Below, one piece after another: positions 1 through 30,927 of a stretch of 30,927 nt of DNA. The stretch comes from Escherichia phage ESSI2_ev129: sequence record NC_049394.1, one strand, 5' to 3'. Under the pieces are notes generated by a model, which was given only the letters and a program-made list of their open reading frames with translations, ran no database searches and was not told the DNA's origin. Every line of letters starts with the position of its first letter. Position 1 is the stretch's first letter. The translations under genes and the position numbers were made by a program.

Positions 1-43
1 ACAGAGTAGATCGTCGGCAGCGTCAGATGTGTATAAGAGACAG
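1..43. other. Illumina Nextera adapter / Tn5 mosaic-end sequence (library artifact, not biological)
   Basis: Bases 3-43 read AGAGTAGA + TCGTCGGCAGCGTC + AGATGTGTATAAGAGACAG (index-like octamer, Nextera read-1 adapter, 19-bp mosaic end). The exact reverse complement is at 30879-30927. Confidence 0.9.
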
Positions 44-19072: not shown

Positions 19073-20130
19073 GTAAAAAGAAACGCTTTGTTAAGCGCGA
19101 CCAGCGCGGCGACAAATCAAAAAAGATGAGCATTATCACTTTCGGCAAACCTGAACCTGTTCTGACTACCGGCACAGATTACCGTGATATCTGGTACGAC
19201 AATGCAGCCGATCACTTCACCCAGCCGATTGACCGACTGGCACTCGCGCAACTGATTAATCTTAACGGTCAGCACGGCGGCATCATTCACGCCCGTAAAA
19301 ACATGATTGTTTCAGACTACCAGGGGGGCGGGCTTATTCACGACCAACTGGAAGCAGCTGCGTTTGACTATATAACCTTTGGGGATATTGCGATTGCCAA
19401 AATTCGTAACGGCTGGGGTGACGTGATCGCACTTGAACCCTTGCCCGGTCTGTATATTCGCCGCCGCAAAGTCAGAGATAACGCCCTGGATAAGCCTGGT
19501 GACTACGTGGTGTTACAGGAAGGGGAACCGCAGGTATGGCCAGAAGAAGATATTATCTTCATCAAAATGTATGACCCGCAACAGCATATCTACGGACTGC
19601 CGGACTACATCGGCGGTGTGCATTCCGCGTTACTTAACAGTGAAGCGGTCATTTTCCGACGCCGCTATTACCACAACGGTGCGCACACAGGCGGTATTCT
19701 TTATACCCGCGATCCCAGCATGACGGACGAAATGGAGGAAGAAATTGAACAGCAGCTGCGTGACAGCAAAGGGATCGGTAACTTCTCCACCATCCTTGTA
19801 AACATTCCCGGTGGAGACGGCGACGCCATCAAATTCATTGAAATGGGGGATATTTCCGCAAAGGATGAATTTGCCAACATCAAGAACATCAGCGCCCAGG
19901 ACATTCTGAACGCTCACCGTTTCCCTGCCGGCCTCGCCGGTATTGTCCCACAGAACACTGCCGGACTGGGGGATGTTGAAAAGGCTGAACGCATTTACAA
20001 GAAAAGCGAAATAGCCCCCATCCAGCGCCGTTTCATGCTTGCCGTTAACAACGATCCCGAAATACCGGAAAGGCTACACCTTAACTTTGATTTAAGTTAC
20101 ACAGAATCAACGGATAAGGGTGCGGTATGA
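19069..20130 (+). CDS. Q: Portal protein, P2 gpQ-like
   Basis: 353 aa; AAGGAAAGAGG Shine-Dalgarno; translationally coupled to P. Order P-Q, divergent from O-N-M-L, is the P2 head-module layout. Confidence 0.85.
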   Translation: MSKKKRFVKRDQRGDKSKKMSIITFGKPEPVLTTGTDYRDIWYDNAADHFTQPIDRLALAQLINLNGQHGGIIHARKNMIVSDYQGGGLIHDQLEAAAFDYITFGDIAIAKIRNGWGDVIALEPLPGLYIRRRKVRDNALDKPGDYVVLQEGEPQVWPEEDIIFIKMYDPQQHIYGLPDYIGGVHSALLNSEAVIFRRRYYHNGAHTGGILYTRDPSMTDEMEEEIEQQLRDSKGIGNFSTILVNIPGGDGDAIKFIEMGDISAKDEFANIKNISAQDILNAHRFPAGLAGIVPQNTAGLGDVEKAERIYKKSEIAPIQRRFMLAVNNDPEIPERLHLNFDLSYTESTDKGAV

Positions 20131-20450
20131 GGCGAAACAGGCTAAAATCCAGGCATCATTTAACAGCTGGAGCATGGAATATGCGAGTTCTGAAAATCGA
20201 ATGCCCGGAATGCGGCTCAAAGGCTGTTATTCGTAAAACGAACAGAAAGCACCGGCAGATTGCTGATATTTACTGCGCCTGTTCAGATGTTGAGTGTGGC
20301 CATACGTTTGTTATGAATCTGACGTTCTCCCACACTCTTAGCCCCAGCGCTAAAACGGGTGATGCGATGGTGCAAAAAATACTGAATGCACTTTCACCCG
20401 ATCAGCGCCAGATGGCATTAGACCTACTGAAAGCGACTCCCGCCGCCTGA
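20127..20450 (+). CDS. Ogr/Delta-family zinc-finger late transcription activator
   Basis: Cys pattern CPEC-x19-YCACSDVECGHTF matches Ogr/Delta/186-B (CPxC...Y.C.C....C..TF). ATG 20127 overlaps the portal stop (ATGA); alternative start ATG 20181 with GGAG upstream gives an 89-aa product. Confidence 0.75.
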   Translation: MRRNRLKSRHHLTAGAWNMRVLKIECPECGSKAVIRKTNRKHRQIADIYCACSDVECGHTFVMNLTFSHTLSPSAKTGDAMVQKILNALSPDQRQMALDLLKATPAA

Positions 20451-20636
20451 AATGCCCCCATTACTGGGGGTTTTGTTTTCATACTCATCGAGCTTACTTT
20501 CCAGATCTGAAGTCAGTTCACTCAGCCAGGCAAGTGCTATGTCTTTCTCACAGCCGGTGCAATTACTTTTAGCTATAAGCCTTGTAAACAACGCAATCCG
20601 CTGCAATGCGATAGTTTCCAAAAACAAATCCTGCAC
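20424..20636 (-). CDS. Small ORF downstream of a LexA box (candidate SOS-induced antirepressor, Tum-like role; speculative)
   Basis: Track ORF is 20424..20684, but its ATG lies on the LexA box; preferred start GTG 20634-20636 (or ATG 20640-20642) with GGGAGG upstream. About 70 aa; 3' end overlaps the terminator hairpin, so the C-terminus is uncertain. Confidence 0.35.
   Translation of the reverse strand: MQDLFLETIALQRIALFTRLIAKSNCTGCEKDIALAWLSELTSDLESKLDEYENKTPSNGGISGGGSRFQ
20454..20479 (+). terminator. Rho-independent terminator after the P-Q-ogr operon
   Basis: G-CCCCC(20455-20459)-ATTACT-GGGGG(20466-20470) hairpin followed by TTTTGTTTT, 4 nt after the ogr-like stop. Confidence 0.7.
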
Positions 20637-27036: not shown

Positions 27037-27540
27037 TCACATCAGGCCGGTGGCGTTGGTTGTGACCAGATCCACCGCAGCGGCCAGAACTGGCGCAGAG
27101 TGAATACGGCTTTCAACGGTATAAGCCAGCACGGATAAGCTACGGATTGCATCGCGGGCACGATCCAGAATTTGAGTACGGCGGGCGGCGGTCATATGGC
27201 CAGTTGATACGGCTTCCCCAGCAATCGCGCCCACACACGCAGTAGCGCTCAACGCGCAAAATTGCATGTTGGCTTCAGTGGCGTTATTGACTGGAACGGA
27301 GGGCAAGCAGTTAATCTGCCCCAGCATCCCATCAAGTAAACGAGCATCTTCCGTGTAATCGGTGATAGCCAGCAGCTCGTCACAGGTCAGGCGGTGCGGT
27401 TGAACCGGGTTCAACTTATTGCGCAGGATCTGCGGACGCATACCAACGGCAGCGGCCACATCTTCCAGATTGTGCGACAGCGCAAACGCTCGGCAAGCTG
27501 CATCAAAATGTGCATGTTTGGAAGTTTGGTAATCAAACAT
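27037..27540 (-). CDS. cII: Phage regulatory protein CII (186-type lysogeny establishment factor)
   Basis: Track start is a GTG; refined to ATG 27538-27540. N-terminus MFDYQTSKHAHFDAACRAFALSHN..LRNKLNPVQPHRLTCDELLAITDYTED parallels 186 CII; 167 aa. Confidence 0.75.
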   Translation of the reverse strand: MFDYQTSKHAHFDAACRAFALSHNLEDVAAAVGMRPQILRNKLNPVQPHRLTCDELLAITDYTEDARLLDGMLGQINCLPSVPVNNATEANMQFCALSATACVGAIAGEAVSTGHMTAARRTQILDRARDAIRSLSVLAYTVESRIHSAPVLAAAVDLVTTNATGLM

Positions 27541-27572
27541 AGTCAGCACCCTCTCTGCGTTTCAAAATCGAA

Positions 27573-27794
27573 TCAGTTAAGTACGATGTTGCAACCCGCG
27601 AGGGCGTCTATGGTCAGAGCCGCGATATTGATCATGACTTTTTCACGCCCCATATCTTTGCGAAGGCGGTGACGAGGCAAGCGGCCATCTTTCAACATCG
27701 CTTCAACGGTATCTTCTGGTAAACCAGTGAGTTCGATGTATTTCTCTTTTGAGATAGAAGGGACGGGTAGATTGATTGAAATGTTAGTGGTCAT
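27573..27794 (-). CDS. Apl/Cox-family excisionase-repressor (tentative)
   Basis: 73 aa, first gene of the leftward early operon, immediately upstream of cII and divergent from cI, as apl in 186 / cox in P2. GAGGAA Shine-Dalgarno. Confidence 0.55.
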   Translation of the reverse strand: MTTNISINLPVPSISKEKYIELTGLPEDTVEAMLKDGRLPRHRLRKDMGREKVMINIAALTIDALAGCNIVLN

Positions 27795-27929
27795 AGTGCA
27801 AGATTCCTCGTTTGGAAGTTAACCGTGGCTAGCGGTGTTAAAAGGTGAACAACCTGTTTTGGAATGTTCGCCTGCAAAATAACTTTCCAAATGCGAAGTG
27901 TCAACCAATAACTTTCCCAAGGCGGAATT
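27795..27929. promoter_or_regulatory. Immunity switch region between apl and cI, with candidate operator repeats
   Basis: 135-bp gap between divergent apl/cox-like and cI starts. Four copies of a 9-11-bp motif: TTGGAAGTT (27812-27820), TTGGAATGTT (27859-27868) and, inverted, AACTTTCCAA (27881-27890) and AACTTTCCCAA (27910-27920). Confidence 0.5.
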
Positions 27930-28550
27930 ATGGATCTCAAAAACGGAGGCCAGGCAGTTATAACCAGGCTCCTTGAAGCTTATGGATTTAAGACAAGGCA
28001 GGCTTTATGCGACCAATTGAAAGTATCAACAAGCACCATGGGAACGAGATGGATGCGTGATGTATTCCCAGCTGACTGGGTTATACAGTGCACAATCGAA
28101 ACTGGTGCATCAGTAGAATGGCTATCGTTCGGAACAGGCGAGAAATTTCCCAACGGAACCAGCAAAAACGCAAATGAGAATGAAGATTCCGCAAATGAGA
28201 ACTTGTTAGGTGATGTTGTTTCTGTTACCCGAAAAAAGGTAATAGATGGAAATTTATACGATTCTAATTTTTACATGCTCGACAAAGCCATGCTCCCATC
28301 CCACCTCAGCAAACCCATTATTATTGTGGATGATGATGTCAGCTACTTAGCCGAGCAGAAAAATGATGAATTAACAGACGGTACATGGCTTGTTGAAATT
28401 GAAGGGCAAGTGAGCATAAAAGAGCTAATACGCATTCCAGTAGGCAGGGTTCGTGTAACCTCAGTGCCTGGTAGCGCTAGTTTTGAGTGCGGTATTGATG
28501 ACTTAAAACCTATCGCAAAATGCCACTACTACCTGCTGACAGATGTTTGA
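27930..28550 (+). CDS. cI: CI-type immunity repressor (186 CI-like; no LexA-like autocleavage domain evident)
   Basis: 206 aa; N-terminal helix-turn-helix-like region (..QALCDQLKVSTSTMGTRWMRDVFPADWVIQ..); no Ala-Gly / Ser-Lys S24 peptidase motifs recognised; upstream of int on the same strand. Confidence 0.7.
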   Translation: MDLKNGGQAVITRLLEAYGFKTRQALCDQLKVSTSTMGTRWMRDVFPADWVIQCTIETGASVEWLSFGTGEKFPNGTSKNANENEDSANENLLGDVVSVTRKKVIDGNLYDSNFYMLDKAMLPSHLSKPIIIVDDDVSYLAEQKNDELTDGTWLVEIEGQVSIKELIRIPVGRVRVTSVPGSASFECGIDDLKPIAKCHYYLLTDV

Positions 28551-28627
28551 TCGAGAGTGAAACAAACATTGACACTGTATAAATAAACAGTAAATCATAC
28601 CCTATAGCAAGTAATAAGGGGTATTGA

Positions 28628-29677
28628 ATGGCTATTCGTAAACTTGAAACGGGTAAATGGCTCTGTGAATGCTACCCTTCCGGACGTTCTGGGCGCAGGG
28701 TACGAAAACAATTTGCAACCAAAGGTGAGGCAATGGCCTTTGAGCGCCACACAATGGATGAAGCCGCGTCTAAACCGTGGCTGGGGGATGTTGTTGATCG
28801 CCGCTCTTTAAAAGACATTGTAAACCTCTGGTATAAACTGCATGGCATATCTCTTACGGCTGGCGAACACGTATATGAAAAACTACTGCTGATCGTGGAC
28901 GCACTAGGAAACCCTCTGGCTACATCGCTAACCCCAAAAATGTTTGCTCATTACCGCGATAAACGCCTAACCGGAGAGATTTATTTCAGCGAAAAATGGA
29001 AGAATGGCGCTAGCCCTGTAACGGTTAATCTTGAGCAAAGTTATTTAAGCGGTGCCTTTAGTGAACTGATTCGCTTGGGCGAATGGCTTCAGCCAAACCC
29101 TCTTGAAAACATGCGAAAATTTACCATTGCTGAAAAGGAAATGGCCTGGCTGACACATGAACAGATTGCTGAACTTCTGTATGACTGCCAGCGTCAGAAC
29201 AAGCTGTTGACGCTGGTTGTGAAGATTTGCCTCAGTACAGGAGCAAGGTGGAGAGAGGCCGTCAATCTGACAAGGTCTCAGGTAACGAAGTACCGCATCA
29301 CTTTCACCAGAACGAAGGGAAAGAAAAACAGAAGCATCCCTATTAGCAAGGAGCTATATGAAGAGATCACCGTGCTGAAGGGGTTTAAGTTTTTTGATGA
29401 TTACTATTTTCAATTTGCATCAGTGATGGATAAAACTTCCATCATTCTGCCGCGAGGCCAGCTAACGCACGTTCTTCGCCACACCTTTGCTGCTCACTTT
29501 ATGATGTCCGGAGGAAACATACTCGCCCTTCAAAAAATACTGGGGCACCACGATATAAAAATGACTATGCGCTATGCCCACCTCGCGCCAGATCACCTTG
29601 AAACTGCGTTAAGGTTTAACCCCTTAGCTACTATGCAAAATGGCGACAAAATGGCGGCAGCGGTTGCCACTCCCTAA
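28628..29677 (+). CDS. int: Tyrosine integrase (P2/186 family)
   Basis: 349 aa. Catalytic signature ..HVLRHTFAAHF.. (H-x-x-R) and ..MRYAHLAPDH (Tyr) near the C-terminus; TGARWREAV region (Arg box). Confidence 0.85.
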   Translation: MAIRKLETGKWLCECYPSGRSGRRVRKQFATKGEAMAFERHTMDEAASKPWLGDVVDRRSLKDIVNLWYKLHGISLTAGEHVYEKLLLIVDALGNPLATSLTPKMFAHYRDKRLTGEIYFSEKWKNGASPVTVNLEQSYLSGAFSELIRLGEWLQPNPLENMRKFTIAEKEMAWLTHEQIAELLYDCQRQNKLLTLVVKICLSTGARWREAVNLTRSQVTKYRITFTRTKGKKNRSIPISKELYEEITVLKGFKFFDDYYFQFASVMDKTSIILPRGQLTHVLRHTFAAHFMMSGGNILALQKILGHHDIKMTMRYAHLAPDHLETALRFNPLATMQNGDKMAAAVATP

Positions 29678-29739
29678 CCTTTAATACTCCTAACTACTCT
29701 TTTAACTTATTGAGTTTAAAGCAAGTAATTGTTTTTCCT

Positions 29740-29768
29740 AACCCATTTATATAAATGGGTTTTTTGTT
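29740..29768 (+). terminator. Rho-independent terminator after int (perfect 22-bp palindrome)
   Basis: AACCCATTTAT|ATAAATGGGTT perfect inverted repeat (29740-29761) followed by TTTTTGTT. Confidence 0.6.
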
Positions 29769-29933
29769 GCCTGAATTTTTCAACCCATGAAATCAATAGA
29801 TTACACCAACCATTTCCCATGCTTGGCGACAAAGTGGCGACACAACTAAAGTCCCTCCTTCCCACAACGAAAACCATTGTCTAAAAATCGTATTGATTTA
29901 AAATCCCTTTTTTTCTTGTCAGGATGACTAATC

Positions 29934-30551
29934 ATGACTTCCTACGACCAACTTAAAGAATGTATCCGCCTTGAAGTCATCGGCCATGACAAATCCTTTT
30001 CATGGCGTAAAGCGTTACTTCGTACCCGGCGTAATCAGAAGAAGCACTTCCTGTTCTGGTGGCGCATCGCTTCATGGCTCTATGGCCAGAATAGTAAGTT
30101 CAAAAAACGCATTGCCCGCAGAATTGAAAACCGCCTCAAGTACCGGCACAGCGTTGATATTTCCCTCTCCTGCAAAATTGGCAAGGGTTTAAACATTGCT
30201 CATCTGAACGCAATTGTTATTACTGATAATTGCGTGATTGGTGATTTTGCCGACCTGAAGCAAGGCATCACCATAGGGTTACGCACAGACAGTGCCGACG
30301 CGATGATAGTCATTGGCGATCATGTTGATATTGGCTGTAACTCGTCCATTCTGGGCGGCAAGGTAACGATCGGTAATAATGTCACCATTGGGGCGCATTC
30401 ACTGGTACTTCAGAACATCCCCGACGACACCGTTTATAAAAACAAAATTATGCCGGTGTACACGTCAAAACTGCCACAGCAGGAAAATCAGCCTTTCGTC
30501 ACGGGTAATGCGACAAAGGAAGCGCCCCGTTCCGCAGAAGTAGCACTGTAA
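29934..30551 (+). CDS. Hexapeptide-repeat (left-handed beta-helix) acetyltransferase, serine-acetyltransferase/WcaB-like
   Basis: 205 aa; AGGA Shine-Dalgarno 9 nt before the ATG. Hexapeptide repeats ..ITDNCVIGDFADLKQGITIG..VIGDHVDIGCNSSILGGKVTIGNNVTIGAHSLV... Markedly AT-rich gene and flanks compared with the rest of the window. Confidence 0.7.
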   Translation: MTSYDQLKECIRLEVIGHDKSFSWRKALLRTRRNQKKHFLFWWRIASWLYGQNSKFKKRIARRIENRLKYRHSVDISLSCKIGKGLNIAHLNAIVITDNCVIGDFADLKQGITIGLRTDSADAMIVIGDHVDIGCNSSILGGKVTIGNNVTIGAHSLVLQNIPDDTVYKNKIMPVYTSKLPQQENQPFVTGNATKEAPRSAEVAL

Positions 30552-30878: not shown

Positions 30879-30927
30879 CTGTCTCTTATACACATCTGAC
30901 GCTGCCGACGATCTACTCTGTGTAGAT
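30879..30927. other. Illumina Nextera adapter read-through (library artifact)
   Basis: CTGTCTCTTATACACATCT + GACGCTGCCGACGA + TCTACTCT + GTGTAGAT; reverse complement of bases 1-43 plus six further adapter bases. Confidence 0.9.

Follow-up and report, generated by a model that had tools for sequence, protein, structure and literature searches.

The lysis/lysogeny switch of phage 186 is the closest described counterpart of the region considered here. In the 186 sequence record, three CI sites lie over the lytic promoter pR beside the cI start, the interval between pR and the lysogenic promoter pL holds seven Apl sites, the pL −35 element falls inside apl, and two further sites, FL and FR, are distal, about 300 bp away on either side. 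According to the wheel model of 186 CI, operators at pR are phased by two helical turns, and engagement at three turns has been proposed, though not shown, for 186 CI wrapping ~180 bp instead of 147 bp (PMC3675496). A second group of described switches is that of P2, W-phi and P2 Hy dis, heteroimmune relatives in which operator sequence and spacing vary while the face-to-face arrangement of the promoters is kept (PMC1904268). Sites for recombination directionality factors take another form, as direct repeats 10–11 bp apart, at least three adjacent ones being needed (PMC7498355).

Here we describe the corresponding region of Escherichia phage ESSI2_ev129, on whose switch our literature search found no paper; the window analysed is the whole 30,927-nucleotide stretch (NC_049394.1). 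A first-pass annotation had pointed to four short repeats between the divergent apl/cox-like and cI starts and had proposed them as binding sites for CI and/or Apl/Cox, with a specificity distinct from that of 186. Our comparisons indicate that repeats 2, 3 and 4 are most likely the strong half-sites of three imperfect ~20 bp CI operators that would block the predicted lytic promoter.

A 186-type switch region

The window is a 186-like prophage placed in the Peduoviridae, genus Quadragintavirus, and shares 99.5% identity with Escherichia phage ESSI2_ev040. The cI and apl-like genes diverge from an intergenic gap of 135 bp (27795–27929; apl-like start codon, complement of 27792–27794; cI ATG, 27930), with int after cI and, in the other direction, a leftward operon encoding a Cox-like 73-aa protein, a CII of the 186 type and a homologue of Fil. 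The neighbouring genes are homologous to cII, fil and int of 186, and the switch that had been located here at first pass is indeed that of a 186-type phage. The CI protein carries both domains of the 186 CI family (Pfam Phage_CI_repr, PF07022, 6e-25; Phage_CI_C, PF16452, 2.7e-29) and matches the 186 CI structure 2FJR at 8.6e-24 (phmmer); a Pfam search with the apl/cox-like product gave no match. Among 5,426 complete E. coli genomes, a single one, LR-51, contains a relative of the immunity region (80% identity), its CI N-terminal domain being 90% identical to that of the window, and a search of genome contigs with the window CI returned no confirmed relative.

Two points of annotation concern CI homologues. 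The RefSeq repressor of ESSI2_ev040 (L002/L034; NC_049393 26650–27147) is given as 165 aa from the internal Met42, a version that lacks the helix-turn-helix and makes the intergenic gap look longer than it is; alignment with 186 CI and the LR-51 annotation both back the full 206-aa cI reading frame. Other CI homologues, 292 aa long and annotated simply as CI (L028 2501–3379, L021–L033, L041–L045 and the Klebsiella phage matches H8–H12), have two tandem N-terminal helix-turn-helix domains followed by a single C-terminal domain, the first-domain tblastn segment being 73% identical to the window CI and the second more divergent (…NRLMEAYGFKTRQELADHLNVSKSTMANRYLRD…).

Candidate operators and promoters

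All four repeats were confirmed by reading the sequence, with start-to-start spacings of 47, 22 and 29 bp (Table 1). The 9–11 bp repeat did not hold up as the binding unit, which appears instead to be an imperfect palindrome of ~20 bp, each reported repeat being its strong half. Repeats 2–4 form the well-matched halves of imperfect 20–21 bp palindromes centred at ~27858 (O_b), 27890.5 (O_c) and ~27919.5 (O_d). At the equivalent of 27881–27900, E. coli LR-51 has AACTTTCCATTTGGAAAGTG, which contains the perfect palindrome ACTTTCCA-TT-TGGAAAGT; repeat 3 can therefore be taken as the strong left half of a 20-bp operator, and O_b and O_d were placed by the same frame. Palindrome scores across the whole window rank O_c first (18.8) and O_d second, an order that is partly circular because the scoring matrix was built from these sites. 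Such inverted repeats fit a helix-turn-helix dimer, with O_c imperfect in the window and O_b (which reads AACAACC...GGAATGTT) and O_d each consisting of one strong half plus symmetric outer bases. That O_b and O_d each have a single good half was counted against the operator reading, and O_d has its right half on the cI ribosome-binding region, so that part of its symmetry could be incidental.

Table 1. Coordinates of genes, predicted promoters, repeats and candidate sites in and around the switch region (window numbering)
Feature	Position	Strand	Sequence or product	Remarks and basis
CII binding site	27513–27539		ATGTTTG-N13-CAAACAT	Start of cII; same inverted repeat at the same place in 186, annotated there as the CII site
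apl/cox-like gene	27573–27794	−	73 aa	phrog_575 'Cox-like excisionase and repressor', 6.7e-23
pL, predicted lysogenic promoter	27776–27804	+	−35 TTGAAA (27776–27781), 17 bp, −10 CAAGAT (27799–27804)	Homology to 186
Repeat 1	27812–27820	+	TTGGAAGTT	Sequence
Candidate Apl array	27814–27853	−	GTTGTTCACC TTTTAACACC GCTAGCCACG GTTAACTTCC	Four 10-bp direct repeats; by eye, low confidence
O_b, candidate operator	27848–27868		AACAACCTGTTTTGGAATGTT	Right half is repeat 2; comparative and sequence
Repeat 2	27859–27868		TTGGAATGTT	Sequence
pR, predicted lytic promoter	27876–27904	−	−35 TTGACA (27904–27899), 17-bp spacer, −10 TATTTT (27881–27876)	Promoter scan, 10/12 consensus
Repeat 3	27881–27890		AACTTTCCAA	Sequence
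O_c, candidate operator	27881–27900		AACTTTCCAAATGCGAAGTG	Left half is repeat 3; fills the 17-bp pR spacer
Repeat 4	27910–27920		AACTTTCCCAA	Sequence
O_d, candidate operator	27910–27929		AACTTTCCCAAGGCGGAATT	Left half is repeat 4; between the pR −35 and the cI start codon, which it abuts
cI, immunity repressor	27930–28550	+	206 aa	Pfam, phmmer
Weak FL-like candidate	28143–28162		AAATTTCCCAACGGAACCAG, core TTTCC-N4-GGAAC	cI linker-coding region, 262 bp from O_c

Together, the three candidate operators overlap the predicted pR from about −60 to +22 (promoter scan and alignment with 186), O_b covering ~+2 to +22, over the start, and O_c aligning with the central pR operator of 186. The pR prediction is the best promoter-like site between 27400 and 28300 in the promoter scan, and its position matches that of the annotated 186 pR. 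The predicted pL falls under the threshold of the same scan and aligns with the annotated 186 pL (TTGCGA-17-CATGAT). The two promoters are convergent, with predicted start sites ~59 bp apart; the corresponding distance in 186 is 62 bp.

In the arrangement we propose, a 186-family CI, with its N-terminal helix-turn-helix and C-terminal oligomerisation domain, would bind O_b, O_c and O_d cooperatively and occlude RNA polymerase at pR, which would silence the apl–cII early lytic operon; by analogy with 186, CI at pR may also relieve interference on the weak convergent pL, the source of cI and int (PMC3675496). What the analysis shows is the sequences, how they lie around a consensus promoter, the family of the protein and the covariation with CI; that CI binds and does so cooperatively, where transcription starts and how interference works are inferred. 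To judge from sequence comparison, the operator set is most likely real and predictable, an ordinary feature of a new immunity type.

Comparison across related switch loci

The decisive support for the repeats as functional sites is comparative and does not come from the sequence of the gap alone. Besides the window, the comparison took in LR-51, 17 IMG/VR contigs and 6 metagenome contigs, 25 related switch loci in all. These fall into four groups; the pR −35 element, the three operator positions and their spacing are kept in all of them, and the half-sites differ: AACTTTCC in group 1, which includes the window, CTCTTC / TTCTC in group 2, AACTCCA in group 3 and ATTCCG in group 4. At the O_b position, group 3 has AACTCCA in the left half (ACTCC at −79) and group 4 the full palindrome ATTCC-N6-GGAAT; at the O_c position, groups other than that of the window have CTCTTC-N6-GAAGAG, or TGGAGTT in the right half; and at O_d, where TTTCCC is invariant in group 1, the others have TTTTCTC, AACTCCA or CATTCCC. 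In eight of the nine group-3 loci scanned, ACTCC is confined, over ±700 bp, to −79, −37 and −17 from the cI ATG, which are the O_b, O_c and O_d positions (the exception, L016, has two further copies inside cI). The side that carries the strong half varies, O_c having it on the left in group 1 and on the right in group 3, as is expected for a dimer site. Within group 1, most substitutions affect the four bases at the centre of O_c (AAAT to ATTT) or lie at outer positions.

Across these loci, with four half-site types at fixed positions and a visible cassette boundary, operator sequence covaries with the CI DNA-binding domain. Pairwise identity of the operator segment tracked that of the CI N-terminal domain (Spearman 0.88, versus 0.36 for Apl), figures that are descriptive and not a formal test or probability, since the loci are related to each other. 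Relative to group 1, the group 3 CI carries K31G, V32A and G38S in or around the predicted recognition helix. That helix (STSTMGTRWMRD) is the same in groups 1 and 2 and nearly the same in group 4 (SSSTMGTRWMRD), although the half-sites of these groups differ, which was counted against the operator reading; given the common helix, groups 1 and 2 may be homoimmune. A sliding comparison of the window with one group-3-type locus carrying AACTCCA (L009) showed 98–100% identity over apl and the start of cII (27398–27797), 40–55% over the operators (27837–27916), about 70% in cI and 90–100% from 28557 onward, in int. The operators and cI thus appear to form an exchangeable immunity cassette with a specificity different from that of 186.

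Repeat 1 and copies outside the operators

The place of repeat 1 in the array is doubtful. It lies at about +1 of the predicted pL, at the left edge of the swapped cassette, and, apart from the window, occurs in just four loci, its closest relatives (L004, L020, L035 and L036). Other group-1 loci have TTGAGCGTT, TTGGGTATT, TTGTGCTTT or TTGTGTATT at its position, so that phages of one and the same CI specificity do not all keep it. We considered whether all four repeats are CI sites, repeat 1 being an extra operator over the pL start that would serve negative autoregulation in one sub-lineage, in the manner of the weak contacts of CI over pL in 186. With its upstream partner (AGATTCCTCGTTTGGAAGTT), repeat 1 has the fifth palindrome score within ±750 bp, it sits inside the segment that differs between immunity types, and 186 CI protects ~60 bp over pL (PMC3675496). 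It is absent, however, from L003 and L005–L007, which have the same specificity, and the left half of its palindrome is the conserved apl ribosome-binding sequence; moreover, at 47.5 bp, or ~4.5 turns, from O_b, it would face the opposite side of the DNA. We regard a fourth operator as unlikely; repeat 1 is either a lineage-specific weak CI site, to which we give the same low probability, or a chance occurrence.

Beyond the four repeats there are two near-copies not listed at first pass, TTGGAAGTT at 27518–27526 and TTGGGAAATTT at 28143–28153 on the minus strand. The former was tried as an FR-like CI site and rejected: it lies in the spacer of a CII site shared with 186 and is identical in group-3 phages with a different CI, and is thus not a CI site. 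The latter falls in the weak FL-like candidate, within which TTTCCCAACGGAAC (28146–28159) is one of only two window matches, at one mismatch or fewer, to TTTCC-N4-GGAAA. Although FL of 186 likewise lies in the linker-coding part of cI, FL- or FR-like sites are not demonstrable in the window: the candidate is not conserved in LR-51 and is weakened in L004 and L020, and the FL-like candidates at 28143–28162 and +255 are confounded by conserved coding sequences (FPNG and SANENLL).

A search for further copies had also been suggested, for example near the ogr-like gene, where one does exist (20496–20513, ACTTTCCAGATCTGAAGT, a 15/18 match to O_c, 3′ of the Ogr/Delta gene), but its association with this CI type did not stand. 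The copy is present in at least 10 IMG/VR relatives not recovered with the window CI type and is absent from L086, the sole group-1 contig matchable for this comparison; it was rejected as a CI-type-linked site and is probably a coincidence inside coding sequence. The search for operator-like copies gave a further match at 19801, in the portal gene.

A separate copy, TTGAAATGTT at 27776–27785, has one mismatch to repeat 2, and in L005 and L006 the O_b half-site has this very sequence. The copy lies across the predicted pL −35 within the first apl codons and is conserved in all groups, so the coding sequence or the promoter probably accounts for it.

Chance, excisionase and RNA explanations

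That the repeats arose by chance or from base composition in an AT-rich intergenic region, with no binding function, is in our assessment very improbable, even though short repeats are common and the gap taken by itself is suggestive and not compelling. The hexamer TTGGAA/TTCCAA occurs seven times in the 30.9-kb window, three of the seven copies lying inside the 135-bp gap, and repeats 3 and 4, 29 bp apart, share the exact 11-bp direct repeat AATAACTTTCC. Of 20,000 sequences made by first-order Markov shuffling of the gap, 1.8% had a 7-mer at least three times (either strand, non-overlapping), 0.7% an exact direct repeat of 11 bp or more and 0.12% both, a joint probability of ~0.001. A 7-mer also occurs three times within 135 bp at ~15 other places in the window, so that the gap sequence alone is only moderately beyond chance. 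In addition, TTGGAAGTT with one mismatch or fewer is less frequent window-wide than expected, and coincidence seems to account for repeat 1 as well as for the copies at 27518 and 20496. For repeats 2–4, chance would not lead one to expect their conservation within group 1 despite 8–16% divergence, nor the position-specific swap to other repeated half-sites in heteroimmune relatives.

More improbable still is a role of the repeats as sites for the Apl/Cox-like excisionase-repressor, which would act from the interval between pR and pL to repress both. Such a role has some appeal from position, in that 186 has seven Apl sites between pR and pL (186 record; PMC7498355), the location of the Apl and Cox arrays of 186 and P2 within the same type of switch; window repeats 1 and 2 fall in that interval, the first of them sharing bases with the final unit of a possible array of 10-bp period. 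Repeats 3 and 4, however, lie within and upstream of pR, outside the interval, and, unlike the 186 Apl and P2 Cox arrays of ~6 bp direct repeats at 10–11 bp spacing, the four repeats are 47, 22 and 29 bp apart in both orientations, with no run of at least three direct repeats at one-turn intervals and no covariation with Apl. In L009, L011–14 and L037, Apl is 100% identical to that of the window, yet the operator segment is 54% identical and AACTCCA replaces AACTTTCC; the sites are not kept wherever the same Apl occurs. Since an identical Apl coexists with AACTCCA repeats and the form is unlike that of directionality-factor sites, the repeats are better read as CI elements than as Apl/Cox elements. 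Of the two roles offered at first pass, that of CI is therefore retained, with three of the four repeats behaving, in sequence terms, as CI operator elements, and that of Apl/Cox is set aside.

A different stretch between pR and pL is a low-confidence candidate for an Apl array (Table 1). Its core, AACCGT..GCTAGCGGTG, is conserved across CI groups with a common Apl, and Tandem Repeats Finder found nothing in 27700–28000. Overlapping this candidate array, between pL and O_b, is a conserved dyad, AACCG-TGGCTAG-CGGTG (27821–27837), present in groups 1–3; in group 4 (L019) it reads AAGCCG-TGGCAAT-CGGCTT, with both arms changed and the symmetry kept.

Control of cI translation by RNA hairpins in the pL leader, each joining one of repeats 1 and 2 to one of repeats 3 and 4, is likewise very improbable: repeat 4 adjoins the cI ribosome-binding site, the minimum-free-energy fold of 27811–27945 pairs repeat 1 with repeat 3 and the inverted orientation recurs in other groups, but that fold does not stand out (z = −1.43, with 15 of 200 shuffled sequences folding equally well), there is no Rfam match, O_c is itself a local palindrome exactly in the promoter spacer, and the strong halves of O_b and O_c lie on opposite sides in groups 1 and 3, which fits a dimer site and not a conserved stem.

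Relation to the 186 and P2 systems

As CI operators, the candidate sites can be set beside those of 186. The repressor family is the same, and the gene order, int–cI and then divergent apl–cII–fil, is common to both phages; in both, three inverted-repeat operators lie over pR, the central one in the −35/−10 spacer and the outermost abutting the cI start, and a weak convergent pL has its −35 inside apl. The half-sites differ (AACTTTCCA in the window versus ATTCAC-N5-GTGAAT and TCTCCCAATTGAGAGA in 186), and the window Apl has no sequence relation to 186 Apl. A specificity distinct from that of 186, as suggested at first pass, is borne out by the operator motifs, each of which is missing from the other's switch: the window switch region has no 186 A-type site (ATTCAC-N5-GTGAAT), whole-window counts of which are at chance level, and the 186 switch has no operator of the window type. 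Heteroimmunity with 186 is predicted from this mutual absence.

Operator spacing sets the two further apart. Centres in the window are separated by 32 and 29 bp, about three turns, versus two turns at 186 pR (PMC3675496); spacing is 28–33 bp in all groups, and this departure from the two-turn phasing of 186 pR was counted against the operator reading. A precedent for the window spacing is the pair of sites 32 bp apart that 186 CI binds at pB (PMC3675496). We raise only tentatively, as an unlikely arrangement, a wheel of CI dimers in this clade that engages pR operators phased by three turns (28–33 bp), unlike the two-turn 186; alternatively, the clade CI may have a different oligomeric state. 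If the three-turn wheel were true, the clade would be a natural test case for the 186 CI wrapping model.

The likeness to P2 is slighter. The C operators of P2, W-phi and P2 Hy dis are two direct repeats at Pe, and repeats 3 and 4 of the window do form a direct repeat, but the window sites are palindromic and not simple direct repeats of the P2 C type, and the repressor is a two-domain, 206-aa CI of 186 type and not a 99-aa protein of the P2 C type.

The mechanism itself is textbook, and what is new is an uncharacterised immunity specificity within the 186 CI family. The analysis supplies a likely operator set and promoter layout for an uncharacterised immunity type among 186-like (Peduoviridae) E. 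coli prophages, and the three sister types with a swapped cI–operator cassette form a comparison set with testable half-sites for heteroimmunity work. Natural variants with three-turn operator phasing also become available for the 186 CI wheel model.

Other features of the window

No homologue of 186 B was detectable in the window by tblastn; a gene for an Ogr/Delta zinc-finger late activator was recovered through Pfam instead (20181–20450). It immediately follows the portal gene, whereas 186 B adjoins the attachment site, and a hairpin and T-run terminator lies 3′ of it at ~20455–20480. Both window ends carry the Nextera mosaic-end adapter AGATGTGTATAAGAGACAG (25–43, plus strand; 30879–30897, minus strand), which at the right end runs on as CTGTCTCTTATACACATCTGACGCTGCCGACGA; the contig ends are thus untrimmed adapter read-through and not biological sequence.

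Just past int, three copies of CCTAAC (29673–29745) lie between two sequences resembling the arms bound by 186-type Int, ATGGCGACAAAATGGCGGCA (29640–29659) and TTGGCGACAAAGTGGCGACA (29823–29842), and the layout suggests either an intact attP-type arrangement or an att junction; the window contains no tRNA that we could find. The only gene 3′ of int in the window encodes a hexapeptide-repeat acetyltransferase-like protein (29934–30551). In ESSI2_ev040 (NC_049393, compared over 28468–29286), an extra abortive-infection family gene lies between int and the acetyltransferase-like gene, so that the cargo at the int end varies between these phages.
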